IMG/VR virus record: IMGVR_UViG_644736359_000007
Source: a virus
Lineage: Duplodnaviria > Heunggongvirae > Uroviricota > Caudoviricetes
Strand: one strand, 5' to 3'
DNA length: 24,156 bases
The position numbers and the translations under genes are program-made. This document shows, piece by piece, positions 1 through 23,838 of the stretch; positions within the stretch are counted from its first letter, which is position 1; every line of letters starts with the position of its first letter. The notes under the pieces are model-generated. The model saw nothing but the letters and a program-made list of their open reading frames with translations. It ran no database searches and was not told the origin of the DNA.

Positions 1-1362
1 ATGTTTAAACCGGAACTCCTTTCCCCGGCGGGAACGCTGAAAAATATGCGTTACGCTTTCGCTTATGGCGCAGATGCTGTTTATGCGGGCCAGCCGCGTT
101 ACTCCCTGCGTGTGCGCAACAACGAATTCAACCACGAAAATCTTCAGCTCGGCATCAATGAAGCCCACGCGCTGGGGAAAAAGTTTTATGTCGTGGTCAA
201 CATTGCACCGCACAACGCCAAGCTGAAAACCTTTATCCGTGACCTGAAACCGGTGGTGGAAATGGGGCCGGATGCGCTGATTATGTCCGATCCAGGGCTG
301 ATTATGCTGGTGCGTGAGCACTTCCCTGAAATGCCGATCCACCTCTCGGTGCAAGCTAACGCCGTAAACTGGGCGACGGTGAAATTCTGGCAGCAAATGG
401 GCCTGACCCGCGTGATCCTCTCTCGCGAGCTGTCGCTGGAAGAGATTGAAGAGATCCGCAATCAGGTGCCGGATATGGAGATCGAGATCTTCGTTCACGG
501 CGCACTGTGCATGGCCTACTCCGGTCGCTGCCTGCTCTCTGGCTATATCAACAAGCGCGATCCGAACCAGGGTACCTGCACCAACGCCTGCCGCTGGGAG
601 TACAACGTCCAGGAAGGGAAAGAAGATGACGTTGGCAACATCGTACACAAGTACGAGCCGATTCCGGTGCAAAATGTTGAGCCGACGCTGGGTATCGGCG
701 CGCCAACCGACAAAGTGTTTATGATCGAAGAAGCCCAGCGTCCGGGCGAGTATATGACCGCGTTTGAAGATGAGCACGGCACTTACATCATGAACTCGAA
801 AGATCTGCGCGCCATCGCCCATGTAGAACGCCTGACCAAAATGGGCGTGCATTCGCTGAAAATCGAAGGCCGTACTAAATCTTTCTACTATTGCGCACGC
901 ACCGCACAGGTTTACCGTAAAGCTATCGATGACGCCGCTGCGGGCAAACCGTTCGATACCAGCCTGCTGGAAACTCTGGAAGGTCTGGCGCATCGTGGCT
1001 ATACCGAAGGTTTCCTGCGTCGTCATACTCACGACGATTATCAGAACTACGAATACGGTTATTCAGTTTCTGACCGCCAGCAGTTTGTTGGTGAGTTTAC
1101 CGGTGAGCGCAAGGGGGACCTCGCGGCGGTAGCGGTGAAAAATAAATTCTCCGTTGGCGACAGCCTTGAGCTGATGACGCCGCAAGGCAACATTAACTTT
1201 ACCCTTGAGCACATGGAAAACGCCAAAGGTGAAGCGATGCCGGTCGCACCAGGCGATGGTTATACTGTGTGGCTCCCGGTCCCGCAGGATCTTGAGCTCA
1301 ATTACGCTCTGCTGATGCGTAATTTCTCCGGGGAAACCACGCGTAACCCACACGGTAAGTGA
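1..1362 (+). CDS. yegQ: U32-family peptidase-like protein YegQ (TrhP/RlhA family, tRNA hydroxylation)
   Basis: Complete 453-aa ORF beginning at window position 1; recognised from memory as E. coli YegQ (U32 peptidase family, Cys-rich segment GTCTNACRWEY); E. coli-like codon usage; followed by cyaR as in E. coli. Confidence 0.9.
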   Translation: MFKPELLSPAGTLKNMRYAFAYGADAVYAGQPRYSLRVRNNEFNHENLQLGINEAHALGKKFYVVVNIAPHNAKLKTFIRDLKPVVEMGPDALIMSDPGLIMLVREHFPEMPIHLSVQANAVNWATVKFWQQMGLTRVILSRELSLEEIEEIRNQVPDMEIEIFVHGALCMAYSGRCLLSGYINKRDPNQGTCTNACRWEYNVQEGKEDDVGNIVHKYEPIPVQNVEPTLGIGAPTDKVFMIEEAQRPGEYMTAFEDEHGTYIMNSKDLRAIAHVERLTKMGVHSLKIEGRTKSFYYCARTAQVYRKAIDDAAAGKPFDTSLLETLEGLAHRGYTEGFLRRHTHDDYQNYEYGYSVSDRQQFVGEFTGERKGDLAAVAVKNKFSVGDSLELMTPQGNINFTLEHMENAKGEAMPVAPGDGYTVWLPVPQDLELNYALLMRNFSGETTRNPHGK

Positions 1363-1396
1363 TTAATTTCGATTATTTTTCCCGGATGGAAAATTC

Positions 1397-1439
1397 TTAG
1401 AAACCGATCACATACAGCTGCATTTATTAAGGTTATCAT
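1397..1439 (+). promoter_or_regulatory. Putative cyaR promoter: CRP-like half-site TCACA near -40 and -10 hexamer TATCAT (1434-1439)
   Basis: TATCAT ends 7 nt before the inferred cyaR 5' end at 1447; an imperfect CRP-type site (TAGAA-N5-TCACA) is centred about 42 nt upstream. cyaR is known to be CRP-activated; the site here is a weak match. Confidence 0.4.
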
Positions 1440-1446
1440 CCGTTTC

Positions 1447-1533
1447 GCTGAAAAACATAACCCATAAAATGCTAGCTGTACCAGGAACCACCTCCTTAGC
1501 CTGTGTAATCTCCCTTACACGGGCTTATTTTTT
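1447..1533 (+). ncRNA. cyaR: CyaR (RyeE) Hfq-dependent small RNA
   Basis: 87-nt sequence GCTGAAAAACATAACCCATAAAATGCTAGC...CCTGTGTAATCTCCCTTACACGGGCTTATTTTTT matches the E. coli CyaR sRNA as I recall it, ending in an intrinsic terminator hairpin (CCTGTGTAA/TTACACGGG) plus U-tract; located immediately downstream of yegQ as in E. coli. Confidence 0.85.
1507..1533. mobile_element. Prophage attL: P2-type att core (AATCTCCCTTACACGGGCTTATTTTTT) overlapping the cyaR terminator
   Basis: 27-mer is the reverse complement of the P2 att core AAAAAATAAGCCCGTGTAAGGGAGATT (from memory); a second copy with one mismatch lies at 23653-23679 next to int. Confidence 0.8.
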
Positions 1534-1596
1534 ACGCGTAATACAATGAAATAAAAGGATTTATTTCTGGTCACGTCCACACATTGACCACATCGA

Positions 1597-1623
1597 CAAA
1601 AAAGCCCCTCGACTGAGGGGCTT
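1597..1623 (-). terminator. Intrinsic terminator downstream of ogr
   Basis: On the minus strand: stem AGCCCCTC / GAGGGGCT with 4-nt loop followed by TTTTTT, 12 nt after the ogr stop codon. Confidence 0.6.
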
Positions 1624-1634
1624 CCTGTTTGTAA

Positions 1635-1853
1635 TTACATCCACATAATTTGCTGCCCTGACGGCAACGGGTGCGGTCTTACGGCGTGGACTTCTCCCGG
1701 CTTCACGATGTATCGCTGTACCGACTCATAAGTGATGAACGTGGCGCTGCAATTCACGTTCTGGCACTGATGATAACGCTCTTTTGTCGTGTCAGTGATA
1801 TAGCGGCTTGTACGCGCATGTGCGGCATGCTGGCATAAAGGACAATGAAACAT
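1635..1853 (-). CDS. ogr: Ogr, zinc-finger late-gene transcription activator (P2 Ogr / E. coli OgrK-like)
   Basis: 72-aa product MFHCPLCQHAAHARTSRYITDTTKERYHQCQNVNCSATF... with C4 zinc-binding cysteines; start taken at the internal ATG (1853) with upstream GGAAGAGG RBS rather than the longer track ORF (1916). Confidence 0.9.
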   Translation of the reverse strand: MFHCPLCQHAAHARTSRYITDTTKERYHQCQNVNCSATFITYESVQRYIVKPGEVHAVRPHPLPSGQQIMWM

Positions 1854-1934
1854 CGCGAGCACCTCTTCCGGTTTGGTTGATGGTGCCATTTTAGTTAAAT
1901 TATCCTTATAAAACAAACAGATAAAATAAAAACA

Positions 1935-2714
1935 TCACTCATCATCTTCTGTTTCGTACTCCACATCAGAAAGCCTGACCTCAAGCTCCAGGGACGTCGT
2001 GAAGCCGCTATTATTCAGAAAATGTGTCACCTTAGTGATTGTCCAGTCCTGCTCGTCTATGACGCGCTTAAAGCCTGACACTTTAACCGGTGTTTCCGTG
2101 TAAATATCAGCACGACCGGTAGCCAGACTGATGGAGAACTCCGCAACGCCCCGTTGCAGCTTATCCCACTTCGCCTGAGCGGCGCGCATGGCCTGCGCTT
2201 TCGTGGCATATACCGTGGTCAGGGCAAAAACGTTGTCAGCCTCACCGGCCATGTATTCACCTTCACGCGCTTCCGGTACTTTAGGCGCTTTCTTCTGCCT
2301 GACCGGTTTCGCGTTCGGGTGCTCCAGTGCGCGCAGGTGTTTCTCTTTCTTTTTGCGTTTCAGTTTTACCTTCTGCTTTTGCGGTTTCGGGTCTTTGGTG
2401 TGTAACCACTTTGCCGTTACGCCTGTATCGTCGCGCTGGTAAGAGCCTGCAAAACGAATCGGCACGGCATCCACACCGGTTGCGGCGTAAAGCTCCCAGA
2501 TAACCGAATCCGGGAATCCACCGAGCGACCACTCCATTGACAGCGCATCGTCATCAAGGCCGAGGTCTACCGGTGCGCTGCCGTTCATCCCCGCACCGCG
2601 ATAGTTTTCGAGCTTACGGGTCAGTTTTGGCAGCGTGACGGACTTTGCAACGCCCTGATAGCTGTAGCCGTTCAGAAAGACGTTCATTAACTTGAGTTTG
2701 CGCGGCATTGCCAT
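1935..2714 (-). pseudogene. Hybrid ORF: N-terminal ~95 aa of P2 tail tube protein FII fused in frame to the C-terminal part of tail protein D (yegZ-like remnant)
   Basis: N-terminus MAMPRKLKLMNVFLNGYSYQG... is the P2 FII start with a strong RBS (AAGGAG); after ...PIRFAGSYQRDDTG the sequence switches to a lysine-rich linker and a C-terminus (...FTTSLELEVRLSDVEYETEDDE) that I recall as gpD-like. Genes E, T, U and most of D are absent, consistent with an internal deletion. Confidence 0.65.
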
Positions 2715-2726
2715 CGGTCAGGCTCC

Positions 2727-3917
2727 TTAATTGCTGTTAACCGAGGTAACCAGACTTGCCAGGTATCTGGAAGTAATACGCTGGCGCAGGGTCAGGTTTT
2801 CGAGAGGAGGCACCGGGGTATAGTCGTAGTCGATATACAGTTTTCCGGCCTTGAGGGTTTCCGCATCATTGGCTTCTTCACTGAACCAGCATGTGCCATC
2901 CACGATATAACCGTTGTTTTTCAGTTCGCGGAATTTGGCATTAATGCCATCAATGATGTCACGAATCAGCGTTGCGGTAATTGGCTTATCAATAGCCCAC
3001 ATGTGCGCCTCGGCCATCGTGTCGGCCAGTACCTGCGCGGTGCGGGTGTAGCTTTCAAAGAGGAACAGCGGGTCATCAGAGCAGGTACGGTTACCCCAGA
3101 AGCGGAAGCCGTCGCGGCGAATCAGCGTAGTGATGCCTGACTCGTTAAGCAGGTCAGCATCAGTACCGGACTTCTGCAAATCCCAGAATACAGAGGCGCT
3201 GATGCCGGTAACACCATTTACCCCGACGTTGGACAGCGTTTTATGCCAGCCCTGCTCCTGGTCGATTTTGGCACGCAGCCCCAGCGCACGGGCGGTGGCA
3301 TACGCGGTGGCAGTGGTACTGGTAACCGTATCCCATGCGAGGAAATCCGGCCAGATGACCATCAGCTCACGCTGGCTGAAATTCTGACGGTAGGCTTTTG
3401 CCTCGGAAATGGTTTTACAGCCCCATGCGCTGATATACCCGAATGCATTCAGTTCCTGGCATACCGATGCCAGTGCGACGGCAACCTCTTTGGTGTCCAG
3501 CCCCGGCACACCAAGAATGCGCGGTTTAACGCCGGTAACCGACTCAGCCCCCATCAGGGCTTTCAGTCCGGTGTACTGACCGTTTTCGTCAGTGGTGCCG
3601 ATGATATTGGAAACGGTCTGCGCGAGTTTCGTTTCCTCGTCGTCGCCGGTGCCGTCTTCCACACGCACGACAACAGTGACCGGTTTTGACTGGTCGGCGA
3701 TAGCCTGCAACGACGCCGCCAGCGTGCCTTTTTTACCGGCCTTTGCAATTGCGCTCTGTACATTGGTAATCAGCACCGGTTTATTGACGGGGAAGGTTTC
3801 CGCATCCGCATCGCTGGCCGTGCAGACCATGCCGACAATGGCCGTGGATACGGTGGAAATGACGCGGGTGCCGTCGTTAATCTCCAGCACCTGCACGCCG
3901 TGATGATAGTCACTCAT
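2727..3917 (-). CDS. FI: Contractile tail sheath protein FI
   Basis: 396-aa product MSDYHHGVQVLEINDGTRVISTVSTAIVGMV... matches P2 gpFI from memory; start at ATG 3917 with GGAG RBS (8-nt spacer). The track ORF extends 50 codons further upstream without support. Confidence 0.9.
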   Translation of the reverse strand: MSDYHHGVQVLEINDGTRVISTVSTAIVGMVCTASDADAETFPVNKPVLITNVQSAIAKAGKKGTLAASLQAIADQSKPVTVVVRVEDGTGDDEETKLAQTVSNIIGTTDENGQYTGLKALMGAESVTGVKPRILGVPGLDTKEVAVALASVCQELNAFGYISAWGCKTISEAKAYRQNFSQRELMVIWPDFLAWDTVTSTTATAYATARALGLRAKIDQEQGWHKTLSNVGVNGVTGISASVFWDLQKSGTDADLLNESGITTLIRRDGFRFWGNRTCSDDPLFLFESYTRTAQVLADTMAEAHMWAIDKPITATLIRDIIDGINAKFRELKNNGYIVDGTCWFSEEANDAETLKAGKLYIDYDYTPVPPLENLTLRQRITSRYLASLVTSVNSN

Positions 3918-4387
3918 CCGTTTAACTCCGTGGTTAATGGGTGCAACTATTTTCTGTTGTGCGAAGCATGAGACGCTATTTGACCTGGCTGGGCAGTGGA
4001 TGAAACAACAGATAAAGAAAAAGTGGGCAACTTGCCCGCCTCTATTTATTGCGGTATACCCAGCCATTCAGGATTTGTTGCTACTCATAATTACCTGCAA
4101 AGAAACAAAGAAAAGATGAAAATACAAGCTGTCTGGTACAAAGAAATCCATCAGACTTCCAACACCCCATACATGTGCCCCCACCACGGTATGCTGCTCC
4201 GCTTCCCTTTGCGGATATTTTCTATCCATCGATTTTCAGCCAGGATATGCACGTGCGCGATGAAGAATGTCACACTACTATTGCCTTGTAAGCCCAGTTC
4301 CCGGTAAGAATAGCAACCAGCATCTGCGCTGCTACAGCACAAAGCGAGTGTATATTTGGGGGGAATATCCTTCATAAACTGTTCGAC

Positions 4388-4413
4388 GAAACCACGCTGT
4401 GGTTTCTCTTGTT
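4388..4413 (+). terminator. Hairpin plus T-rich tail (terminator-like) on + strand
   Basis: GAAACCAC-GCT-GTGGTTTC followed by TCTTGTT; no convincing upstream + strand gene. Confidence 0.35.
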
Positions 4414-4530
4414 ATCAAACCGAGTGGCATTATCACTAGTTTTACTAAATTACCAACTTCACTGTGAATGATATGCATGATAGAATCAGAAAATTAAATT
4501 ATACAGATCTTAATCAATTCCGCGTTTTAT

Positions 4531-4556
4531 GCCCGTTGCTTCCACGGGCTTTTTTT
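4531..4556 (+). terminator. Intrinsic terminator on + strand in ORF-free AT-rich segment
   Basis: GCCCGT-TGCTTCC-ACGGGC followed by TTTTTTT. Confidence 0.5.
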
Positions 4557-4651
4557 AAAAAATCACCTAAAATAAATAATTATATTCACTTTTATTCTAA
4601 TACAGAATAGAATATGAAATCGTCAATTTGTACCATTAATTTTCAAATCTT

Positions 4652-4681
4652 CCCCGCCTTCGAGAGAATGCGGGGCTTTTT
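4652..4681 (+). terminator. Intrinsic terminator-like hairpin on + strand
   Basis: CCCCGC ... GCGGGG stem with 12-nt loop followed by CTTTTT. Confidence 0.4.
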
Positions 4682-4829
4682 ACATGAGTACAACTTCACA
4701 TTAACTATTTTTATACTTATAATTTGCTTTGCTTAAAAATGTTCAAAATGTACGCCAACATATTTAATTATGCTGATTTTATCACCAACAAAACTATCAC
4801 CATGCAAACAATCCCTCGTGTTAGTTATA

Positions 4830-4845
4830 CTGCAATGCATTGCAG
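4830..4845. repeat. Perfect 16-bp palindrome CTGCAATGCATTGCAG, about 115 bp upstream of the leader ORF ATG
   Basis: Exact dyad symmetry seen directly in sequence; plausible binding site for a dimeric regulator. Confidence 0.9.
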
Positions 4846-4959
4846 CATGATGTGCTGATGACTTCATTAAATCATGTCACAATGTTCAGATATAATGCTT
4901 CATGTTATGAGATAGCATTCTGAATATTCATAAACATTATTAACGTTAGAGGTTGCATA

Positions 4960-5146
<187 letters not shown>

Positions 5147-5175
<29 letters not shown>

Positions 5176-6265
5176 TTGCCCTTATTATACTATAAAAGGC
5201 AACACTAAAAAAGAAAACATTTCATCTTCTGCTGTTTTAACAACAGCCCTGCATACTTCTCTTCTAAAAATCACAACGGTAATTAATGAAATTAATTCTA
5301 TTTATCCCTTTGATGTCTCAGTTGTTATTCCGGTTCACAACCGAGAAACCCTTATTCTCGAATGCATTAAATCTTTAAACAATCAGACTATAGATAAAAA
5401 TTGTTTTGAAGTTATTTTCATTGATGACTGTTCCACTGACAGGAGCATTGCCGCCATTGAATATAACATTTCGAGAGAAATAAATTATCGTATTATCCGT
5501 AGAGCAGTTGGTTCAGGGAATGCATCAGCGCCGCGAAATGAGGGAATAAAATCCGCAAAAGGTCGCTATGTGTTTTTCTTAGACTCTGATGATTCCATTC
5601 ACTCTGACTTACTGTCCGATGGTATTCAGATGGCTTATAAAAACAATAGTGACATTGTATATTTCAAGCAGGTTTCCTCTACAGGGAGAGGGGTTCCTGT
5701 ACGCCCATTTAAGGCAGACACGAATAAAGCAGATATTATAAAAAACCATCTTTTTAGATCATTAAAAATCTTCAAGTTCTTTAAAAGAGAGTTGCTAATC
5801 AATAACAACATCTTATTTAACCCATCAATTTCAGTCTATGAGGATATGCTTTTTTCTTGCCAGAGCCTAACTGTAGCTAATACGATATCTATACTGGCAA
5901 GAAAGGGCTACTACTCTCTGAATCGCCATGAAGAACCACATCTATCTAAAACATCTTTCTCCATTAAACAAAGAGCCTTGGTATTACAAACAGGTTTGAT
6001 TTATATCTTATCAAGCAATAAAAATGAAGCAGAAATAGTAAAAATGTTTAATGCATGGCTGGTTATTTGCGTTGAGCACTTGGCATCCATATTATCCAAA
6101 AAAAGTTTAACAACTAATGAGAAGTCTCACGTTTTTAACTTGATACATAAATCACTCTTACCATATACAGGGCTTGTAAATGAGTCCCAAATATATCCCG
6201 CACAAAGAGAGCTTGTCAGTTGCTTAATCTGTGGAGATTATTCTTCTTTTTGCGAAAAAATATAA
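5147..6265 (+). CDS. Family-2 (GT-A fold) glycosyltransferase
   Basis: Conserved GT2 motifs VSVVIPVHN, DDCSTD, APRNEG and FLDSDD in the first ~150 aa. There is no in-frame ATG: candidate starts are GTG 5147 or GTG 5153 (AGGTG RBS-like at 5143-5147), or ATG 4960 after a one-unit change in the AGCC tract. AT-rich, atypical for the prophage backbone. Confidence 0.75.
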
Positions 6266-6304
6266 AAACACTTAACTACAGATACTCCTAACTTTGTATC
6301 TGAC

Positions 6305-6334
6305 GCCCCTCACCCTAAATTAAGGGTGAGGGGC
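6305..6334. repeat. GC-rich inverted repeat (12-bp stem GCCCCTCACCCT / AGGGTGAGGGGC) followed by an A-tract
   Basis: Strong hairpin 40 nt downstream of the GT2 stop; flanked by A-run on the 3' side of the + strand, so not a canonical terminator for either strand. Confidence 0.5.
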
Positions 6335-6476
6335 AAAAAAAATAATTATTTGATGTTATATTTATATGCCATCACATCTTTTAACTCCAGTTGTTACGGG
6401 GAGGACAGTGACTCGTATCAACTAAAGTTTGATCTGTAGATAACACTATTTTAAGCAGATACTCATTAAGGCTTGT

Positions 6477-9335
6477 TTATTCTGAAGTCTCCAACTTCAT
6501 CAAACGACGATTTAAGTCAACAAAGCGTTCCATTAACAAATCCACCTGGCTGACAACAGCACGTAGACACCACCAGAGAAGCTCCTCTTTCCGGAAGCGA
6601 TAACGGCTTCCTGCTTCGGTTGCAGGGCGAACAAGAACCCTTTCCGCCTGTCGGGTAAGCACACGAGTTGTCCCGCTCAACAGCTCCCCTTCATCCGAAT
6701 AAATCGCTGGCTGAACCGGAATATCTTCATACTCTTCCGGTATATCTTCGTACTGTGCCTCCTCCGCTTCCCACGAATCCAGACAAAATGCGCTGTATTT
6801 CCGCCAGTCCAGACCGTGTTTCTCCATCACCGCTATCGCGGCCTGGACTGTCGGCCCGGCGTGCAGACGCGCGTCCTCGCCCTCCTCCTCAATTCTCTGT
6901 AACCAGCGCCACACGCCCGGAAGCCGTGCTATTTCTGCAAATGCCGCGTTTTCGGCTGCCGTCGCATCGCGCGGTGTATCCTTTAACGTCGCATCCGACA
7001 CAACGGTCGGCGAGTTGCAGAGATACACGCTCCGGAACGCTTTGTTGGGCGCACCCAGGTCGCTGGTATTGTTAACCGATGGCCGGAATGCACCGTTAAT
7101 ATCTGTATCCATCTGCATGAATGCAGTGCCGTCACTACGGGCTGCAATTACATAAGCGTCAGCAGAATCGTCATAAATACCCAGATTCCCGGCTGTTGAT
7201 ACCTGGAAAGCTCCCGCCTTCAGCGTGGTGCTGATGGCCATGCGCTTCTGGGTTTCGTCATCCGATTTAATATTCACGCCCTGCAGGTATGCCACATTCC
7301 AGCGATTTGGCGATGACCCCAGATTCATTGCCTTGTCCTGGTCGGGATGAAATGCCGGCGAGACCGGACTCAATAATACAGACCAGGTCTCACTGCCATC
7401 GGTACAATAAAGCCTTGTGCGCCCCGCCGACTGAGTATCGTTCATTGAGTAAAGGTTAATCCCGCCACCGCTCAACAAATCCACGTCAGCGCGTATTTCC
7501 AGACAATCGTGCACGGTGTTCAGTCGGTGTTTCCACTGAACGAAGCGGCCTGTGTATTCTCCGGTTCGGAACGCATCCCCGTACAAACGAAAAACAGCAG
7601 CAGAAGTGTCTGTATCCGGAGCCTCCTTTCTGACCTCAAATAACGGGCGATGCGAGCGCAGATTCTGCTCATAGGCTGCCACCTGGAAGTCTTCATTGGG
7701 TGACAGGGCAATATTTACAGCATTGGGACTCAGAAAAAGGCTAGCATGGCTGTCAGGAAACGCCACGCCGGAGTCCACCAGATAGCCTGTGCCGTCGTAA
7801 GCCTCCACGGAAACCACAGCTTTGCTGCGTTTTGTCGCCACGCCACACGTATAAGACTTCGTGGCATCATATTTCGTTGCAGCCGCCGTTCCATATGCTG
7901 TAGGCGTCCAGTAAGATGGATTCACCGGGGAACGGCCAGAAAAATTTGTTGCACGTGCTGCAAAGTATGCCCCCTCAAAAGAAACCACATCTGCTGTCTG
8001 ACACCAGAAATCCATATCGAGCAGATACAGTTTTCCGTTATGAAGAGCCAGCCCTTCGGCTTCCTGCAAAACGGGATACCCCAGCTCTGCATTCCCCAGC
8101 ATTTTCTGGCGGCCATACCTGGCACGAACGCCATCCACATTGAACTGTCTGACAACTTCGCCCGTTGACAGGTTATATACAACAATGCGGTGAGTCAGAA
8201 ATACGCCTGTATAACCGTAATAAGCAAACAGATAATGACCATCGCTGGCCATCCCCTGAAATGCCTGCGACACCATTGACTGGGTGGACAGATAAATCCG
8301 GTGTTTAAACGTCAGAGAAGCGCGATCGAAAACATAAACTGTGCGGCGGTCATCCCTGTTGTAATGAAGATGGACGGCTTCATTACTTGACTGAACAATC
8401 AACAGGCTTCCGTCTACCGACAATGCCACCGTTATAATTTCATCCCCGGTAAAAAAGTCAGAGGTGAAAATCTCCGTACGGGTGACATCTGTCAGACTGG
8501 TGTCAGCCCCATTCCAGTTGATGATATTCACACCCTTGCCGTCAGCGGTCGGGGTATACAGCATCACGCGACCGTCTTCACATACAGCCCCGATACTCTG
8601 GTGACCAATATCAGCGAAAACGGGAGAAAACGAAATGACCGTCGGGTTTTCGTTTTCTCCGTCAGGGTTAAATGTCGTTTCAACAATCCTTACGCCACCC
8701 GATACAGGCTGATGCAGAAACATTCTGGTTCCCTGCGGCGTATCACAGATACAGAACCCCTGACTCATATTATCCGCACCGTCAAAAATCCCGGCGTAGT
8801 CAATATCGTGGACAACTTTATGCTGAAGAACCACATCATCAATGACAGTACGATGAAAACTGGATATGGCTTTATCGACGTAATCCTGCGTCGCCATCAC
8901 CGTGCTGGCATCAATACTCAGCTCAACAGACGCCACGTTACTGACAATAATAACCATGCGGCAGGTCTGCGCACGCCCGGAGCCTTCAGCCAGTTCAGGC
9001 TTATAGCTTTCTACCATGTTAGCGACCGCAATCAGTGTTCCGGCATCGTCATACAGACCAAGTTCACGCATCCAGAAGCCGCCCACTTCTGGCGGTACAA
9101 CCAGTTCAGCCACGATATAGTTTTTATTCTTGTTATCCACGCTGACTTTATTCAGGGCGTGACGCCAGACCTCATGCACCAGTTTCGTCTGACCAGCATC
9201 CGGCACCGGCAATTTGCCATTACCGTCACCCACGGCCATTGCAGACAGGGTTACTTTTTTCCCGCCGGGGACAGTGGCGGCTGCCAGCTTTGCGGCTCCG
9301 GCAGTAGTGATAACGGTTTTAAATTTCGTGCTCAT
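6477..9335 (-). CDS. H: Tail fibre protein (P2 gpH-like N-terminal anchor domain with a divergent, longer distal region)
   Basis: N-terminal ~150 aa (MSTKFKTVITTAGAAKLAAAT...WRHALNK...GGFWMRELGLYDDAGTLIAVANM...) matches P2 gpH from memory; 952 aa versus 669 aa in P2; positioned directly after gene I as in P2. Confidence 0.8.
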   Translation of the reverse strand: MSTKFKTVITTAGAAKLAAATVPGGKKVTLSAMAVGDGNGKLPVPDAGQTKLVHEVWRHALNKVSVDNKNKNYIVAELVVPPEVGGFWMRELGLYDDAGTLIAVANMVESYKPELAEGSGRAQTCRMVIIVSNVASVELSIDASTVMATQDYVDKAISSFHRTVIDDVVLQHKVVHDIDYAGIFDGADNMSQGFCICDTPQGTRMFLHQPVSGGVRIVETTFNPDGENENPTVISFSPVFADIGHQSIGAVCEDGRVMLYTPTADGKGVNIINWNGADTSLTDVTRTEIFTSDFFTGDEIITVALSVDGSLLIVQSSNEAVHLHYNRDDRRTVYVFDRASLTFKHRIYLSTQSMVSQAFQGMASDGHYLFAYYGYTGVFLTHRIVVYNLSTGEVVRQFNVDGVRARYGRQKMLGNAELGYPVLQEAEGLALHNGKLYLLDMDFWCQTADVVSFEGAYFAARATNFSGRSPVNPSYWTPTAYGTAAATKYDATKSYTCGVATKRSKAVVSVEAYDGTGYLVDSGVAFPDSHASLFLSPNAVNIALSPNEDFQVAAYEQNLRSHRPLFEVRKEAPDTDTSAAVFRLYGDAFRTGEYTGRFVQWKHRLNTVHDCLEIRADVDLLSGGGINLYSMNDTQSAGRTRLYCTDGSETWSVLLSPVSPAFHPDQDKAMNLGSSPNRWNVAYLQGVNIKSDDETQKRMAISTTLKAGAFQVSTAGNLGIYDDSADAYVIAARSDGTAFMQMDTDINGAFRPSVNNTSDLGAPNKAFRSVYLCNSPTVVSDATLKDTPRDATAAENAAFAEIARLPGVWRWLQRIEEEGEDARLHAGPTVQAAIAVMEKHGLDWRKYSAFCLDSWEAEEAQYEDIPEEYEDIPVQPAIYSDEGELLSGTTRVLTRQAERVLVRPATEAGSRYRFRKEELLWWCLRAVVSQVDLLMERFVDLNRRLMKLETSE

Positions 9336-9345
9336 TGTTTCTCAC

Positions 9346-9876
9346 TTATCCGGGATAAACAGTAATAACATCACCATCACAGACCACACCGCCTGTATAC
9401 AGATAGCCGGGAATGTCCTGGATAATGTTCAGACCGATAAGGTGGCGACTTGCGGGTTTGGCATCGGCAATCAGCCGTTCCATTTCCAGATACATCTCCT
9501 CCGTGATGCCGCTTTCCAGTACGCCGATATCAAGGCGGAAGGTTCCGGGCGGGTCGTTTGTCTCCCACCATTCCTTTACGTTAATTAGATAGCCTAGCGG
9601 CTCCACCACACGCCGGATTGCACCTATAGTGCCTTTATGACAGTGGATGAAATACGCATCGCGGATAACGGCGCGTTTTGTCGCTTCCGGCCACTTTTCA
9701 TCCCATCTGTCGACCGAAAACGCCCACGCCAGCCACGGCAGCAGATTTGCCGGGCAGGTGTCCGGGTTCCACAGCTCACGAATACTGACCGGTGTTTTTT
9801 CAATTTCCGCACAGGCTTTTGCGGCGGCGACCTCAAGCGGTGATGAGCCGGTCGGCAGCAGTCGCGAATCACTCAT
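9346..9876 (-). CDS. I: Baseplate assembly protein I
   Basis: 176-aa product with P2 gpI length and sequence character; gene order J-I-H conserved. Confidence 0.85.
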   Translation of the reverse strand: MSDSRLLPTGSSPLEVAAAKACAEIEKTPVSIRELWNPDTCPANLLPWLAWAFSVDRWDEKWPEATKRAVIRDAYFIHCHKGTIGAIRRVVEPLGYLINVKEWWETNDPPGTFRLDIGVLESGITEEMYLEMERLIADAKPASRHLIGLNIIQDIPGYLYTGGVVCDGDVITVYPG

Positions 9877-10777
9877 CCGAGCCTCCGGTCACGACGCGGT
9901 ATTCAGTACAGAAAGACGCCTGCGTGCTGTTAAGCACGATATCGGCCAGCGGTGCAGCCAGTTCGACACGCTGCACGCCTTCCACATGCAAAGCGGCATA
10001 AATGGCAGACAGACGGATGTCGCGCCCCAGCCGGTGCTGTGCCGTGATGTACGCTTCCAGTTTTTTCACGGCAGCAGCGCGGATGGGTTCGCTTTCGGGA
10101 CCAGGGTAAAGGTAAAGCGTGGCGTTTATCTGGTATTCAACAATGGCGGCAGACTGCACGGTCACGCGGTCGGCCACCGGTCTGACGTCCTCGCCATTCA
10201 GGGCGTTACGCACCACCGCCAGCAGGTCTTCGGATGCGACACCGTTATTCTCACGTGACAGCACAGAGATGGTGACGCAGGCCGGAGACGGACTGGTGAC
10301 AGAGATATCCGCGACACGCCCGTCAGCACTGCGACCATGATACTGATAGGCACCCACCGACCCGGCGACGCTTAAACCTTCAAACGCCTGCTGAATACGC
10401 AGACGATAATCGGTATCAGATTCCATCACTGCCGGTGTCGGCGGGATAGTCGAATTATCTGCCGGGGTGATAGTCAGACGCGTGGTGTTGTAATTGGCAC
10501 CAATCACATCAAGGTCATTACCCGCGGCACAGGCCAGCATCACCGCCCGTGCGGCCTCATTCACACGCTGACGCCAGATAAGCTCACGATAAGCATTTTC
10601 CTCCAGCAATTTGACGAGAGGCTCGGATTCCAGCGTCAGGGTACGGGCGACCGCCTCCTGCTGGGCTTCCGGGTAAAGGGAAATCAGTGTCGCCTTGCGT
10701 TCGGCGAGAATGGTTTCAAAGTCCAGCTCCTCGACCACATCCGGTGCGGGTAGCTGGTTCAGGTCGATAATCGGCAT
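9869..10777 (-). CDS. J: Baseplate assembly protein J
   Basis: 302-aa product (P2 gpJ length); 8-nt overlap with I as in P2. Confidence 0.85.
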   Translation of the reverse strand: MPIIDLNQLPAPDVVEELDFETILAERKATLISLYPEAQQEAVARTLTLESEPLVKLLEENAYRELIWRQRVNEAARAVMLACAAGNDLDVIGANYNTTRLTITPADNSTIPPTPAVMESDTDYRLRIQQAFEGLSVAGSVGAYQYHGRSADGRVADISVTSPSPACVTISVLSRENNGVASEDLLAVVRNALNGEDVRPVADRVTVQSAAIVEYQINATLYLYPGPESEPIRAAAVKKLEAYITAQHRLGRDIRLSAIYAALHVEGVQRVELAAPLADIVLNSTQASFCTEYRVVTGGSDE

Positions 10778-10781
10778 GGTT

Positions 10782-11129
10782 TCAACTCACAGGGATGGTT
10801 AACGAAAGTGGCTGGCCGGTGTCGTTGTGCTGGCCGGTTAAGGTGACCGTCATTCGCCCGTCAAAACTGCGCTCAGTGGTGACGGATGACAGGGTGACGC
10901 GGGGTTCCCATTTCAGCACCGCCATGTAACAGGCGACCTTAATCTGCAACTCAAGCGCCGGGGTCTGCGGCTGGTCAATCATTGACGCCAGCAACGAGCC
11001 GTAATCACGACGCATCACCCGCGAGCCGACCGGTGTGCGCAGGATATCGCCGATACTCTGGCTGATATGCTCAAGGTCAGTGACAGTCAGGCCATCACTG
11101 CAATTCATTCCGAGATAACGCGCTGTCAT
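10782..11129 (-). CDS. W: Baseplate protein W (gp25-like)
   Basis: 115-aa product (P2 gpW length); position between V and J. Confidence 0.85.
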   Translation of the reverse strand: MTARYLGMNCSDGLTVTDLEHISQSIGDILRTPVGSRVMRRDYGSLLASMIDQPQTPALELQIKVACYMAVLKWEPRVTLSSVTTERSFDGRMTVTLTGQHNDTGQPLSLTIPVS

Positions 11130-11761
11130 AGAGGGCTCCCGGTTGTGCCGCCGCTGTCGCCGGGGTGTTTATGGGTATGCAGTACCTTACCGTTTGATGA
11201 GAGTTCACCGCCGGTGTGTTCAATGTTGCCGCGCATCGTCCCGCCCTTCTGCACTTCCAGCGTGCCGGTAATCAGCCTGTTGGTGCAAACCACCTCCGGT
11301 GTGTCCAGGGTGACGCGGGTTGATGCTTTCACCATGACCACCGGCACCGTGGCAGTAACAGAATCAGAAGCCGTCACGCTGGCCGTTTTAATTCCGCTTA
11401 CCGTGAGTGCACTGGTTTCGGGTTCATACTCAATCACCGCCCCGTCAGGGAAACGGATATGCAGGGCATCCGCCGACGCAGACGGCGCGGGGTTATCGCC
11501 GGAATAAATCCCCGGCAGAACGAACGCCGTGTCGAGTTCACCGCCCACAGCCAGAATCAGCACCTGTTCCCCCACGGAAGGTGCCCACCATGTGCGCGAA
11601 CGTCCGGCACGATGGGTCAGCCACTGAAGCCAGTCAGTGCACATGCCACCGGTCTGCACACGGCAGCGACCGGCTTTAAGGTTGGTTTCGACGACAAGGC
11701 CGGTACGAATCATGTTGCGCAGTGCGCGCGCGAGTTCCTGAATATTTGCGAGAGTGTTCAT
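11126..11761 (-). CDS. V: Baseplate spike protein V
   Basis: 211-aa product starting MNTLANIQELARALRNMIRTGLVVETNLKAG...; start chosen at ATG 11761 to match P2 gpV; ATGA-type overlap with W. Confidence 0.85.
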   Translation of the reverse strand: MNTLANIQELARALRNMIRTGLVVETNLKAGRCRVQTGGMCTDWLQWLTHRAGRSRTWWAPSVGEQVLILAVGGELDTAFVLPGIYSGDNPAPSASADALHIRFPDGAVIEYEPETSALTVSGIKTASVTASDSVTATVPVVMVKASTRVTLDTPEVVCTNRLITGTLEVQKGGTMRGNIEHTGGELSSNGKVLHTHKHPGDSGGTTGSPL

Positions 11762-11778
11762 GCGTGTGAGATTGCACA

Positions 11779-11827
11779 ATATATAAAAGTTATGCTATCT
11801 GGATTCATTTGTAGAACGACCATACAA
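11779..11827 (-). promoter_or_regulatory. Putative Ogr-dependent late promoter upstream of V (dyad TTGTA-N9-TACAA plus downstream -10-like TATATA)
   Basis: Partial dyad resembling the P2 late-promoter TGT...ACA element about 25 nt upstream of an AT-rich -10-like hexamer. Spacing differs by 1 nt from the consensus I recall. Confidence 0.35.
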
Positions 11828-11844
11828 CATTCGAGGAGAGCGTA

Positions 11845-12630
11845 ATGTTCAGTGATAATGTGACTAATGCGTGGTGGTTTATCTCTTTGTATCTATTTTT
11901 ATTAATAGCATTAACATTTATTACCTTTGGTAAAAGTAATCTTATGAGGTTTATTGCACATCATTTCAATTTTGAGTATTCAGACAGAAAGTTAAAAATG
12001 CTCGACAAAAAATGGCGCGACATTCAACTATTTAAAATAATTAACGGAATCAATGTATCAGGCATCGAAGATGTGAGAATGATACAGCAGGGGCTGATTG
12101 ATGGAAAACTAAAAACATCGTATTTTTTTCTTACTCGCTTCTGGGGTGACATAACAAAACCACCACACATAATTAAAACAATAATTGTAATTCTGTCCAG
12201 CATTATTTATATTCTCTTCGCATGTTATATACACAACAAACAATCCGCTATAGTAAGAGATGCCATAGGCATACCATATAAAAATATGATGTACTATGTT
12301 TATAGTGACAAAGTTCTTTTATCCTTCAACAATAAAACAGTTGAATTCAATAAAACTTATAGCCTTGCCGATTGCAAGAGGCTACGAAACATATTTATAA
12401 AAGACACACTTCCTGAGATCGCCTGCAATAAGCTCTTACAGCTAAACGAGGAGGACTCGGAATGGTTAAGTCAGGAAATTAAAGATAATAACAGCCAAAA
12501 AAAAGCATTATTAATAATATCCCTCATCTATTTCATTTCAGGTCTGGTTATATTCCTGTCATATACAAAATTCCTTTACGCCAATAAGAAGGTTGTAGAA
12601 TACAAAGCATCAAATAAAAATCACTCATAA
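11845..12630 (+). CDS. Hypothetical membrane protein (three predicted transmembrane helices), AT-rich cargo gene
   Basis: ATG with strong GAGGAG RBS; 261 aa with hydrophobic segments AWWFISLYLFLLIALTFITF, IIKTIIVILSSIIYILFACYI and ALLIISLIYFISGLVIFLSY; lysine/asparagine-rich; no homolog recognised. Confidence 0.6.
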   Translation: MFSDNVTNAWWFISLYLFLLIALTFITFGKSNLMRFIAHHFNFEYSDRKLKMLDKKWRDIQLFKIINGINVSGIEDVRMIQQGLIDGKLKTSYFFLTRFWGDITKPPHIIKTIIVILSSIIYILFACYIHNKQSAIVRDAIGIPYKNMMYYVYSDKVLLSFNNKTVEFNKTYSLADCKRLRNIFIKDTLPEIACNKLLQLNEEDSEWLSQEIKDNNSQKKALLIISLIYFISGLVIFLSYTKFLYANKKVVEYKASNKNHS

Positions 12631-12635
12631 GCCTC

Positions 12636-12672
12636 TAAACATTGAGCGACCAGCATGGCCGCTCAATGTTTA
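12636..12672. repeat. Perfect 13-bp inverted repeat (TAAACATTGAGCG ... CGCTCAATGTTTA) with 11-nt loop between convergent coding regions
   Basis: Seen directly in sequence; lies between the membrane-protein stop (12630) and the stop of the minus-strand fragment (12692); possible bidirectional terminator or rearrangement scar. Confidence 0.5.
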
Positions 12673-12694
12673 ATTGCGCATCAGCCTCTGCCTG

Positions 12695-12955
12695 GATAAA
12701 ACTAACGCTCAAGGTGAGCCAGGATAATCTCTTCAATCATCTGCACATCCTCACCGGTAAAGCCGAGCAGAGGACGCGCCGGATAATCAATTTTCTTACC
12801 GTCTTTCCGGGTTTCTTCCGACAGACCGAACTGATGCACACTGGCGATTTTCGGCGACTTTCCCAGCAGGATTTCAGCCGCTTTGTGCTGGATTTTCTGG
12901 TGTTCGGTAATGCGTTTCTGGAAAAGCGTTACAGCACCACCGGTAAGGTCATCAG
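12695..12955 (-). pseudogene. Orphan 3' fragment (87 codons) of an unidentified gene on the minus strand
   Basis: Minus-strand frame translates to GFQSDDLTGGAVTLFQKRITEHQKIQHKAAEILLGKSPKIASVHQFGLSEETRKDGKKIDYPARPLLGFTGEDVQMIEEIILAHLER-stop using preferred E. coli codons (CTG, CCG, GGT, CGT), whereas the overlapping + strand track ORF uses rare codons (AGG, CGG, ATA, CGA); no start codon; bounded upstream by an in-frame stop at the junction with the Q fragment. Confidence 0.5.
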
Positions 12956-13931: not shown

Positions 13932-15902
13932 TTAAAGGTCATCAATTAAACCTAAAGGCAAACCATCCTCACCAACCGAGCTATAATGAGCGATAATATT
14001 CGAAAGTTCACCAGTAGAAAACGAATTAGGCAAATCATTATCAACTAATATAATCTGGCACGGAACATTTTTTCTTTCTGCTTTTTGAACTGTATTCAAT
14101 AGTTGCTCATAAATATTTTGATACTTCATCGGGTCTGACATCCCCTCAAGGTCATCCTCGACTGCAAGAGTTTCTTTTGAGTATTTTTCCTTGGTCTGTT
14201 TCCCTAAATATTTACCAACCGTATCAAATATCAAAAGTAAAGGATGGTTAACATTATGGTCTATTGCATAATCAAGAATAGACAAAAGATACCCAATAGA
14301 AGAAATAGTTCTCAAACCTCCGGACGTTATTTTAAAATATTCCTTTCCTCTTATAACAGGGGTGTAATATCTTTCAGAGATTTTTATCCCCGTTCTGTTT
14401 TTGATATTAATACCCTTCAAATACTGACTAAATCTATCACCTAAACCTTGTAAAATGCCTTCCATACTAGGTGCGTTTTTCTTTAACGCATCCAAGCGTT
14501 CAGTTAATGTTTCAATATCTTTTATCAGTACCTGATGCTTTTCAAGCAGTTCCTCTTGCTGGTTTCTAACCTTCAAATCTTTTACTAACTGCTCCCTAAC
14601 CTTCTCGTTTTTTGATATCTCTTTAATATAAAAATCTCTCTGAGTCAAGAATGGTGTAATCATTGACTGGCTTTCTTCGTCAATTAACTCTCTCAACTCG
14701 TCAAGTTGTTCATCTAATTCTTTTTTATAACCAGATTCTTTTTTTAATTTAAATGACATTTCTGAGATCATGTCATTAATATTTCGTCTACGTCGACTAA
14801 GTGAATTCAACTCTTCATTAAGATCTTTTTCTGATGAAATTTCAAATGGAAAATCGGAATCATCTATTTTAATGTGGCTATCACAGATCGGACAGGAAAA
14901 TACTTCCTTATCCAATACACCAATGCGAGAATTTGCTGTTTTAATCGCTTTGAGTTTTTCAATATCATTATCATAGTCATTTTTTAACCGCGAATATTTA
15001 TCAATCTTATCCTCAAGCGTGCTAATATTTAATATGCACTCCTTGTATTTAAGCGAAATAAAATTGTGGGCATCTTTCAATTCTGTATACTGCATGGAAT
15101 CCGCTTTCATATTTTTATCGAGAGCAGACAAACCTGCAACAAGTTCTTCTAAAATAAGATCTATCCTATTAATCTCATCATCAATTGATTCAATTGTTTC
15201 ATAGTCTGTATCGCGAAGAAATTCAGATATTATCTGATACTTCTTATTTAGTTCCGTTACTAAACTACTTTTTGCAGATATTTCACCTTGGAGTCTGGCG
15301 ATGCTTTCATCCAACACATTGAACATGTATTTAAAAACTTCTTTCGTAAATGCGTAACGGGACCAATCCTCCAATCGTAAGAATGATTTACTACCAATAT
15401 CATCCTGACTTACATAAACAAATTTATATATATTTCTAAAGCTTAACCTGCGCATCTGTGAATGTGCTTTAGAAGGAGACACCTTAATTTCAATTTTTGG
15501 AAAATTAAGACTATCAAGTAAAAACTCCGAAAAAACGCCATCAACATTTGATAAGGGGCTATAATTAGGAGCGTATTTTTTCGGAAAGTGTTTATGTAAA
15601 TCATCAAACTTACAACGATAAACTTCTATTGATTTTTTATGATCATAGATATCTCTTACGATTGTGAATACAGTATCATTGATCACTACTTCAAGAGCAG
15701 CATAGTTTACTGATGTTTTTATTTCATCTGCTAAATCTATAGAACTAGCACCTAAAAGATAATTAATAAACTCCAGAATACTTGACTTACCTGTGTCAGA
15801 GTCTCCGTAGATAACATTGAGACCTTTATAAAAAGTAGTGACGTAGTTTTTACGAACGCCAACAAGAATCAAACTATTGATATTGAGATATGATTTCATC
15901 AT
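13932..15902 (-). CDS. Rad50/SbcC/SMC-like ABC ATPase with central coiled coil and CPxC zinc-hook motif (candidate LmuB-like)
   Basis: 656 aa; Walker A GDSDTGKSS (about 15781-15807); long heptad-like charged region; CPICD near the middle (about 14878-14892); ABC signature ITSGG (about 14311-14322); Walker B HPLLLIFD (about 14221-14250). AAGGAG RBS; start ATG 15902 or 15899; ATGA overlap with the upstream gene stop. Confidence 0.7.
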   Translation of the reverse strand: MMKSYLNINSLILVGVRKNYVTTFYKGLNVIYGDSDTGKSSILEFINYLLGASSIDLADEIKTSVNYAALEVVINDTVFTIVRDIYDHKKSIEVYRCKFDDLHKHFPKKYAPNYSPLSNVDGVFSEFLLDSLNFPKIEIKVSPSKAHSQMRRLSFRNIYKFVYVSQDDIGSKSFLRLEDWSRYAFTKEVFKYMFNVLDESIARLQGEISAKSSLVTELNKKYQIISEFLRDTDYETIESIDDEINRIDLILEELVAGLSALDKNMKADSMQYTELKDAHNFISLKYKECILNISTLEDKIDKYSRLKNDYDNDIEKLKAIKTANSRIGVLDKEVFSCPICDSHIKIDDSDFPFEISSEKDLNEELNSLSRRRRNINDMISEMSFKLKKESGYKKELDEQLDELRELIDEESQSMITPFLTQRDFYIKEISKNEKVREQLVKDLKVRNQQEELLEKHQVLIKDIETLTERLDALKKNAPSMEGILQGLGDRFSQYLKGINIKNRTGIKISERYYTPVIRGKEYFKITSGGLRTISSIGYLLSILDYAIDHNVNHPLLLIFDTVGKYLGKQTKEKYSKETLAVEDDLEGMSDPMKYQNIYEQLLNTVQKAERKNVPCQIILVDNDLPNSFSTGELSNIIAHYSSVGEDGLPLGLIDDL

Positions 15903-16264
15903 TTCTCCTTGAAGACTTTGTTTATAACAGAGTTTAACTTAGAGGTAGGCAATGCTTGTAGCGGTAACAATGCTTCGGCTAGTCGTTTTATTTCTTTAAA
16001 ATATCCATCAGTCAATGAGCTAGCAAATTCCTTACCTTTTTCAGATAAAAATAATTTAACACTCTCATTATTTTTTTTCTCAGCTGAGAGCAATCCCCGC
16101 AATGACATAATTTTTATAAGATATTTCACTTTGGAATTGTCGAATAAGATATCTACATTTGATGAAAAACTCTTTATTGTATAAGTTAACTGGGACTCGA
16201 CACAAGCAGGCTTTTTCCCCGAAACTGTAAGAGCACAATCAATTTTTGATGGATTTTTTATCAC
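15899..16264 (-). CDS. Small hypothetical protein encoded between the hydrolase and the ATPase (candidate LmuC-like accessory)
   Basis: 121-codon ORF (GTG start at 16264; alternative ATG at 16108 would give 70 aa); stop overlaps the ATPase start (ATGA), indicating translational coupling; AT-rich. Confidence 0.5.
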   Translation of the reverse strand: MIKNPSKIDCALTVSGKKPACVESQLTYTIKSFSSNVDILFDNSKVKYLIKIMSLRGLLSAEKKNNESVKLFLSEKGKEFASSLTDGYFKEIKRLAEALLPLQALPTSKLNSVINKVFKEK

Positions 16265-16399
16265 AGATACATAAAAATTTGTATTTTATTAATATCTAAT
16301 GACAACACTCCTTTTTTACTATGAGATAATATAGATATAGCAATGGCAAGCATAGCAAAATTCAAACTATACTCTTCATCAAGAGGTATATACGGCAAG

Positions 16400-17623
16400 T
16401 TATTTTTCTTCATGATTACCTCGCCGTAATTGCTCCAAAGTTTCTACGCTGGTTTCAGATGACCAGACAATATCCCTGTCATTTTTGTTAGCCAGTTGAT
16501 GCAACATTCCTTTCTTATGTATCGTTTCCAAACTTTTTATAAGAGAATCTAACGACGACTTATCCTCCTGGGTTATTCGTCTATGAACAGCAGCAATAAA
16601 TTTATCTGGGGAAATTGAATTTGCAATGTATTGCTCATACTCTTCCTGGTAAATCTCCCTTATTTTAGAATACAAATGACCAAGTTGTTTTCTATCGTAA
16701 TCACTCGTAAAAATATTTCTCGCAAGCTCAGCATTATAATAATATTCCTTTGCATGCAGAGCGATATCCTGATGTATATCTGCGACAATCATTTTTAAGA
16801 CGAAATACTCATTATCATATTGTTTATCATCAGAAAAACGCTCAACGCAAATCTTCTTGGGTGCTTCTAAATTTATCTGCTGAATAAATTGCTTTACCGC
16901 AACAAACACTGTAGACGAGCTATTTTCGGGCTTGCAAATTGAGCTATGCCCTTCATTAACTGCAATTGAGTTATGTCGTTCACTATCCATCGGTAATGCG
17001 CTTTTTTTATCGACTATAGTGTCATGAGATCCATAAACATATCTAGTGATAGGAAGTTTTTTGCTACAATTTATCCAGCGCCTATTCAATGTATCAGTCG
17101 CTTCACTTAACAATCCAAGATCTACTAACTGAGCATTTGAAGATACCATTGAAGTTATATTCGCTAATTTAGCACCAAAGTGAGGGACTGCTAACGAAAT
17201 GAATCCAATTATATTAGATTGTTCCTCATGCTCAACTTTTTTTAGAATTAGATTTTTTGATATTAACCCCCCCATACTATGGGCGATTATTATAATTCGA
17301 GAGTAATCACTTAGTGTTACTCTAATCTCAGTATACAATAACTCAGCTATTTCATCAGTTGGTAAATTTCTCTCTAACTTATTTTTCTTAAAGAAAATAC
17401 GAGCCAAGAATCCTGACGTTTTAGCATACGTTTGTGTGAATTTAGTAAAATAATTGAAACATGCAATATCAAATACGTTGCTAATATCTTCATCTTCTGC
17501 TAATAGTTTTGGAAATGAAATTTCTTTATTAAAGTTCCATGTTTCCAAACCACCATTTAATCCATGTACAAATAGTATCAGGCTATCTTTTTTCTCGTGG
17601 CTTATCCATTCAACCATGCTCAT
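16400..17623 (-). CDS. Alpha/beta-hydrolase (lipase/esterase-like) domain protein with a C-terminal helical domain (candidate LmuA-like effector)
   Basis: 407 aa; N-terminal LILFVHGLNGG and nucleophile-elbow IIIAHSMGGL (GXSXG-type, about 17267-17284), then candidate Asp (GSHDTIVD) and His (NEGHSSIC) in Ser-Asp-His order; C-terminal ~160 aa charged/helical; sigma70-like promoter (TTGTTT-N16-TATACA) just upstream. Confidence 0.7.
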   Translation of the reverse strand: MSMVEWISHEKKDSLILFVHGLNGGLETWNFNKEISFPKLLAEDEDISNVFDIACFNYFTKFTQTYAKTSGFLARIFFKKNKLERNLPTDEIAELLYTEIRVTLSDYSRIIIIAHSMGGLISKNLILKKVEHEEQSNIIGFISLAVPHFGAKLANITSMVSSNAQLVDLGLLSEATDTLNRRWINCSKKLPITRYVYGSHDTIVDKKSALPMDSERHNSIAVNEGHSSICKPENSSSTVFVAVKQFIQQINLEAPKKICVERFSDDKQYDNEYFVLKMIVADIHQDIALHAKEYYYNAELARNIFTSDYDRKQLGHLYSKIREIYQEEYEQYIANSISPDKFIAAVHRRITQEDKSSLDSLIKSLETIHKKGMLHQLANKNDRDIVWSSETSVETLEQLRRGNHEEK

Positions 17624-21747: not shown

Positions 21748-22023
21748 TTAACGTGGTTCACCGAGACCTAACCACATCAACCAGCCGTCACGAATCTCTT
21801 TAGGACGGCTTTCATAAGCCAGTTTTAGTCCGTTATTCCATGCCGGAAGGTATACCCAATATTCACCAGCACGCCCCGATACTGACTGAGGGTCAGTAAT
21901 CTCAATAACTGGTAATTTCCCTTTCTCAATCATGCCCCTTACAGCTCTTGGAGTTTTACCAATGAGTTTTGCAAACTCCTGATAAGGCACGGCATCAGTC
22001 ACGCTTACAAGCTGTCTATTCAT
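21748..22023 (-). CDS. cox: Cox (excisionase / repressor of Pc)
   Basis: 91-aa product with C-terminus ...SGRAGEYWVYLPAWNNGLKLAYESRPKEIRDGWLMWLGLGEPR matching P2 Cox from memory. Confidence 0.85.
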   Translation of the reverse strand: MNRQLVSVTDAVPYQEFAKLIGKTPRAVRGMIEKGKLPVIEITDPQSVSGRAGEYWVYLPAWNNGLKLAYESRPKEIRDGWLMWLGLGEPR

Positions 22024-23652: not shown

Positions 23653-23679
23653 AATATCCCTTACACGGGCTTATTTTTT
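23653..23679. mobile_element. Prophage attR: P2-type att core copy (AATATCCCTTACACGGGCTTATTTTTT, one mismatch)
   Basis: 23 of 27 positions form an identical run with 1511-1533; directly follows int. Confidence 0.75.
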
Positions 23680-23838
23680 TATGCATAAGCCCTATCTCTG
23701 GTAACCGTCTTCCATTGACCACATCGATAGAATCCTCCTTCATAGCACGATGCCTTTCACTTATCGGCATCGTGCTCCCACAGGTTCCGGCTACGCACAG
23801 CCAGAACGCGCATATTTGACGCTTACCAAAAAATATTC

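Follow-up and report, generated by a model that had tools for sequence, protein, structure and literature searches.

At the yegQ end of a P2-like prophage, a reading frame of 259 amino acids begins as the tail-tube gene FII and finishes as gene D, which encodes the baseplate hub protein. The frame raises three questions: how the two genes came to be joined, whether the joined product does anything, and whether the ogrK-yegZ remnant that E. coli K-12 carries at the same chromosomal site descends from it. The frame has an ATG start and lies on the minus strand at 1935-2714 of the window (the whole stretch of viral DNA analysed, 24,156 nt), as given in the window's ORF listing. It is very probably a deletion scar, that is, a chimeric pseudogene in a defective P2-like prophage of E. 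coli B.

The window comes from E. coli B and contains its defective P2-like prophage, which is integrated at the cyaR/yegQ-yegR att site. Across bases 1400-4400, the window shows 100% identity to ten complete genomes, comprising B, ATCC 11303, AS19 and drug-selected B lines (nine genomes named as B or its derivatives) and one genome labelled 'strain C'. In the annotated copy NZ_CP115178.1, the genes run in the order yegQ/trhP, ogrK, two phage pseudogene pieces, the tail-sheath gene and cargo genes, followed by baseplate and fibre genes, more pseudogene pieces, a defence-type cassette, replication genes, cox, C, int and yegR. The layout is that of a P2-like (Peduovirus) prophage, with att cores, with int, C and cox at one end and with ogr at the other. 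Both 27-bp cores match the P2 attP core, and across the P2 int-attP region the identity is 99.1%. This P2-type att core lies within the terminator of the CyaR gene, so that after integration the 3' end of cyaR is made up of phage sequence. In BL21(DE3) (NC_012971.2; L006 5950-6281), the att site is empty and one 27-bp core is left. The element therefore spans 1507-23679, an excisable unit of 22,146 bp, and the defective prophage can still excise precisely and has been lost in that subline.

The reference for mapping is an intact sister prophage that strain Z0117EC0062 (L004) carries between yegQ and yegR, at the same site; its sheath and OgrK proteins have the same accessions as those of E. 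coli B. Relative to this sister, the B prophage lacks the complete late-gene set of a viable phage and carries two internal deletions, FII'-'D (4,321 bp) and S'-'Q (8,266 bp). The latter extends from the 5' part of S to the 5' part of the portal gene Q and removes R, the lysis genes, X, L, M, N, O and P. Together with the loss of E, T and U, it leaves the prophage unable to make tails, heads and lysis proteins. The stretch upstream of FI, which ends near 4041, is homologous to the late-promoter region pF of P2 but has diverged from it. The diverged region is also present in the otherwise intact sister, within its 99.4% colinear match to the window. The features of the locus are collected in Table 1.

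Table 1. Coordinates of the chimeric frame, its parts and the surrounding prophage features in the window.
Feature	Coordinates	Strand	Source or remark
CyaR sRNA gene	1445-1530		Rfam RF00112, 100.7 bits
27-bp att core, yegQ side	1507..1533	.	overlaps CyaR terminator
Hairpin where P2 has the annotated rho-independent terminator of ogr and the F operon	1602..1623	.	scan, found on + strand
ogr, intact (OgrK, 72 aa), late-gene activator	1635..1853	-	
Chimeric FII'-'D ORF, 259 aa	1935..2714	-	PGAP: two pseudogene fragments
D-derived part (D nt 671-1164, gpD residues 225-387 and stop)	1935..2428	-	
Deletion junction, 13/15 imperfect direct repeat	2414..2428	-	coding strand: FII ATACCGGCGAAACGG, D ATACAGGCGTAACGG
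FII-derived part (FII nt 1-290, aa 1-98 including the shared Thr-Gly)	2425..2714	-	P2 comparison
AAGGAG ribosome-binding site of FII, overlaps FI stop codon	2723..2728	-	read from sequence
FI tail-sheath gene, intact, 396 aa from MSDYHHG	2727..3917	-	
Second internal deletion junction, S'-'Q, 6-nt microhomology	12858..12863	.	
27-bp att core, yegR side	23653..23679	.	

Both halves of the chimera align with the P2 proteins from which a sequence-only reading of this DNA had derived them. By BLASTP, chimera residues 1-101 match gpFII 1-101 with 99 of 101 positions identical, and residues 97-259 match gpD 225-387 with 162 of 163 identical. The in-frame chimera takes residues 1-98 from gpFII 1-98 and residues 97-259 from gpD 225-387, with the Thr-Gly at the joint common to both parents; the retained coding length is 286 + 494 = 780 nt. 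The start is also the authentic start of FII, as had been claimed: AAGGAG lies 8 nt before the ATG, and the FI-FII spacing of 12 nt is the same as in P2.

Judged from profile and structure matches, neither half of the chimera is a complete fold unit. The Pfam Phage_tube domain (PF04985) is recognised on residues 4-100 (E 4.3e-26; 92.1 bits against a cut-off of 22.4), where the match covers only positions 1-95 of the 165-position profile. A full-length tube domain, which comprises about 165-172 amino acids and forms a stacked hexameric tube, is not present, and the C-terminal 74 residues of gpFII (99-172) are deleted. The Phage_GPD domain (PF05954) on residues 144-236 scores 27.7 bits, under its cut-off of 30.1, and corresponds to profile positions 214-304 of 305; a whole late control D/baseplate hub gpD domain is not found at the gathering score. 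The N-terminus of the hub is gone, with gpD residues 1-224 absent (D codons 1-223 deleted). Matches in the PDB are confined to residues 1-66, which resemble the solved R2 pyocin tube, and to residues 167-243, which resemble the C-terminal end of the pyocin hub chain 6u5h_C. PGAP labels both halves of 1935-2714 as pseudogenes.

Comparison with the sister resolves the event that joined them. Window positions 1-2428 correspond to L004 2267-4694 and positions 2414-12863 to L004 9001-19503. Through the FII-D stretch, the alignment is colinear with a single break, at which the two segments overlap by 15 nt and a gap of 4,321 bp opens; against P2, the same gap measures 4,320 bp. These lengths bear out the single in-frame deletion of about 4 kb that the sequence-only reading had proposed as the cause of the loss of E, T, U and the 5' part of D. 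That account did not include the 3' 229 nt of FII, the 3' 44% of the gene, which are lost as well. In full, the missing segment consists of FII nt 291-519, the FII-E spacer, E/E', T, U and D nt 1-670.

Mapped to the nucleotide, the joint does contain microhomology. Within the 13/15 repeat at 2414-2428, the stretch shared exactly is ATAC (2425-2428). On the coding strand, the context reads ...GACGATACCGGCGAAACGG... in FII, ...CCTATACAGGCGTAACGG... in D and ...GACGATACAGGCGTAACGGCAAAG... in the window. The window has the D base at both mismatches of the repeat, which places the crossover in the ATAC. FII-D homologies of at least 13/15 occur in only two places in the intact sister, one of them the junction repeat, compared with a mean of 0.55 in shuffled sequences; the endpoints were therefore guided by homology and not arbitrary. 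The frame was kept because the deletion length (4,321 nt) and the distance between the starts of FII and D in L004 (3,937 nt) are both 1 mod 3. An assembly artefact was considered and is ruled out by the presence of the same junction in ten complete assemblies.

We infer that illegitimate recombination or replication slippage between ATACCGGCGAAACGG in FII and ATACAGGCGTAACGG in D removed the 4,321 bp in one event. The FII start and ribosome-binding site would then read into the D frame, giving a predicted 259-aa product composed of tube residues 1-98 and hub residues 225-387.

Of the 5,426 complete E. coli genomes, 10 contain the 241 nt that span the junction, at 100% identity; nine of these bear the name of B or of a derivative, and the tenth is the one labelled 'strain C'. 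REL606 has the exact chimeric protein in its record (ACT39646.1, 'putative phage protein (D protein)'), as do at least 1000 contigs, and copies of the fusion show little or no variation. Fusions of the same two genes occur in other strains with different joints. MB06022 has a separate FII'-'D deletion of 4,463 bp at the same att site (L005 6127-6128), beside a sheath gene that is 6% divergent. This fusion is out of frame, since the FII frame reads only two more codons (Pro-Ala) beyond the joint before it stops, and its D-side end lies 1-3 nt from that of B. A third FII'-'D fusion, in the draft genome GCA_012219145.1 (EEZ7385511.1), is in frame and belongs to a prophage adjoining fieF-pfkA. Its joint runs from GATACCGGCGA into CCCGAAA (L010 6268-6269), 3-7 nt from the B end on the FII side and about 30 nt from it on the D side. 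Each of these junction types is confined to its own strain. At the att site used in B, 11PC has D and U intact beside a sheath fragment, and ET881 has ogrK beside a sheath fragment.

An open frame across a junction has a prior of about one in three, and in MB06022 the frame is closed; the open frame was for these reasons rejected as a sign of significance, and in B it is probably not meaningful. The count of two in-frame fusions among three independent cases (B and GCA_012219145.1) is compatible with chance, though it does not prove chance. It is extremely improbable that the chimera is a retained functional protein, whether a dominant-negative tube/hub fragment that blocks tail assembly by superinfecting P2-like phages or a domesticated module together with the sheath and ogr. 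Such a role would suit the authentic start and ribosome-binding site ahead of an open frame, the intact sheath gene and ogr on either side, the second independent in-frame fusion at another att site, and the defence-type cargo that PGAP names indicate in the prophage. It fits poorly with a fusion limited to one laboratory lineage, with the out-of-frame variant in MB06022 and with two halves that are each partial domains; moreover, a tail cannot be built without E, T and U, and BL21(DE3) has lost the whole element. As a deletion scar, the chimera would yield a product without function. By analogy with P2, its transcription would depend on the late F-operon promoter, which is Ogr-dependent, and would occur only when Ogr is made; the chimera should therefore be silent in the repressed prophage.

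The three fusions also bear on whether the B deletion was a one-off event. E-T-U has been lost from at least three prophages that integrated independently, at two att sites, and the endpoints lie between a few and about 30 nt apart. The closeness of the D-side end of the 4,463-bp deletion in MB06022 (1-3 nt), and of both ends in GCA_012219145.1 (3-7 nt and about 30 nt), could reflect a deletion hotspot that is used repeatedly, or a family of related junctions, modified stepwise, to which that of B belongs. Such a history is unlikely, given that the junction types are each private, that other strains have quite different endpoints at the same site, and that only three cases are at hand, the third drawn from the same 90%-identity protein cluster and MB06022 found through its retention of both flanks, which introduces ascertainment bias. 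It is quite improbable, too, that the GC-rich motif common to FII nt 287-301 and D nt 671-685 is itself a recurrent deletion hotspot in P2-like prophages. A microhomology hotspot may exist around the motif ACCGGCG/ACAGGCG, as far as three cases subject to ascertainment bias can indicate. If it does, prophage inactivation in the P2-like family could follow a preferred, sequence-determined route; alternatively, the clustered ends could mean that selection favours the arrangement of sheath, FII'-'D and ogr.

The remaining question concerns K-12. In MG1655, the order is yegQ-cyaR-ogrK-yegZ-yegR (cryptic prophage PR-X, b2082-b2083), and the observation that K-12 carries ogrK and a D fragment (yegZ) at the site of the B prophage is correct as to att site, orientation and gene order. 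The K-12 YegZ protein (72 aa) pairs with chimera residues 190-259 at 68 of 70 positions. Window positions 1-2147 are colinear with K-12, and positions 23662-24156 come directly next in K-12. The D fragment of K-12 measures 213 nt and passes, at a 3-nt TAC microhomology, into the att core on the yegR side (attR), 9 nt into the 27-bp core; this junction (L003 4813-4815) is equivalent to window position 2147 joined to 23662. An aberrant excision, driven either by Int or by microhomology, may have produced it. Of 5,426 complete genomes, 357 have the K-12-type junction, and among the matches listed, the three at full coverage are K-12 laboratory strains. The window shares with K-12 the presence of ogr and a 3' D fragment at the yegQ-side core. 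It does not have the K-12-type junction, in which D is joined directly to the yegR-side core without other phage genes, and instead retains 21.5 kb of prophage between 2148 and 23661.

The sequence-only reading had gone on to suggest that the K-12 remnant is a further-decayed derivative of the B lineage, and this part of it is not supported. In its most direct form, K-12 ogrK-yegZ would descend from the FII-D-deleted prophage through one more deletion, from D to attR. The arrangement yegQ-cyaR-attL-ogr-'D is alike in att site, orientation and order, a single 21.5-kb deletion from window position 2148 to 23661 would turn B into K-12, and the two are related laboratory strains whose yegR flanks are 100% identical over 495 nt. 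Structures alone are therefore compatible with K-12 as a more eroded state of a B-like prophage, but the sequences argue otherwise and make such descent very unlikely. Over the 641 nt that they share, B differs from K-12 at 22 positions (3.4%) and from the intact sister, in an unrelated strain, at only 5 (0.8%). B and K-12 each show 21 differences from P2, which leaves K-12 as distant from B as from P2, and at eight sites (1677, 1909, 1989, 2076, 2085, 2109, 2112 and 2127) K-12 has the P2 base where B has that of the sister. A prophage inherited by both strains should be no more divergent than its flanks, yet the flanks differ by only 23/1506 (1.5%) in yegQ and 0/495 (0%) on the yegR side. The best phage match of K-12 is vB_EcoM-720R8 (98.3%), not the B type; B itself best matches the phages P22H1 and 720R8 at about 97-98% and has closer relatives among prophages such as L004. 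The K-12 D fragment ends at the equivalent of window position 2147, 280 nt before the FII-D junction, and there is therefore no shared derived junction. In addition, several independent forms of decay occur at this site in other strains. The best reading of these sequences is that the K-12 remnant represents a different P2-like phage that decayed independently at the same att site, a site that would have been lysogenised repeatedly by different P2-like phages, each followed by independent decay.

Other parts of the B prophage have features of their own. A perfect (CAGC)n tract at 5114-5144 lies inside a short 5' ORF (ATG at 4960) within the interval 4960-6265. This ORF is directly upstream of a family-2 glycosyltransferase gene, in the Z/fun cargo slot. 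The tract has 7.75 copies in the window, 35.75 in the B strain NZ_CP115178.1 (L002 23715-23857) and 20.75 in the sister (L004 11701-11783), the window and NZ_CP115178.1 differing in length by 112 nt. When repeat length was varied in a simulation, one class out of three joined the 5' ORF and the glycosyltransferase into a single frame of 433-437 aa; the three copy numbers seen here all belong to classes without the fusion. The tract looks like a case of slipped-strand phase variation, which is unusual for E. coli, and it may be more interesting than the FII'-'D fusion.

The tail-fibre gene at 6477-9335 (minus strand) has 952 codons; P2 gpH, with about 669, is well below this length. No separate fibre-assembly (G) gene follows it in either B or the sister, and the glycosyltransferase cargo comes directly next. 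The P2 old/tin cargo slot, between the portal gene and gene A (about 13932-17623, minus strand), encodes an AAA ATPase and two 'ABC-three component system' proteins by their PGAP names, and the sister has a DUF7380 protein in place of this set. The cox-C (immunity) interval at 22002-22314 has no match in the sister, although the early region flanking it is about 96-97% identical, which suggests by sequence comparison that the two prophages are of different immunity types. The late regions of B and the sister are 99.4-99.6% identical; taken with the unmatched cox-C interval, this identifies the B prophage as a mosaic.

The B prophage and its fusion ORF are already known, the ORF having been in GenBank since the REL606 genome. 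Cohen in 1959 reportedly obtained P2 Hy dis by recombination between P2 and a cryptic prophage that gave it its immunity region, and we take the defective prophage of E. coli B to be that donor. The K-12 remnant is said to have been described by Barreiro and Haggard-Ljungquist in 1992, and the prophages of B and K-12 to have been compared by Studier and colleagues in 2009. A full-text literature search found no paper describing the yegQ-yegR remnant or the B defective-prophage locus. In a passage of PMC8594841, Studier et al. are cited for the distinct cryptic prophages of B. The nucleotide-level junction map and the comparison with an intact sister may be unpublished.

The importance of these results is slight and mostly a matter of housekeeping. 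They provide a nucleotide-resolution account of why the P2-like prophage of E. coli B cannot make tails, they identify the 259-aa ORF of REL606 as a chimera and the two pseudogene calls of PGAP as the outcome of one single event, and they correct the tempting inference that K-12 ogrK-yegZ descends from the B prophage. The forms found at this site (intact, B, MB06022, 11PC, ET881, K-12 and the empty site of BL21) make up a small and clean decay series that is usable for teaching or for studies of prophage erosion.

Among known systems, P2 itself (NC_001895) offers a close counterpart of the two halves, which are 98-99% identical to gpFII and gpD and retain the ribosome-binding site and FI-FII spacing of the phage; ogr and its terminator lie downstream of D in both. 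In P2, E, E', T and U stand between FII and D, whereas in B they are gone and both proteins are incomplete. The K-12 yegZ/ogrK remnant (PR-X) resembles the B locus in its att site at the cyaR terminator, its orientation, its intact ogr and its 3' D fragment; it differs in having only 213 nt of D, without FII, FI or other phage genes. The fusions in MB06022 and GCA_012219145.1 join the same gene pair, lack E-T-U and have at least one end within 0-35 nt of that in B, but their junction sequences are different, that of MB06022 is out of frame and that of GCA_012219145.1 lies at a different att site. The defective prophage of E. coli B, represented by REL606 ACT39646.1 and by the PGAP annotation of B strains, is the same object as the one described here, identical in both protein and DNA.
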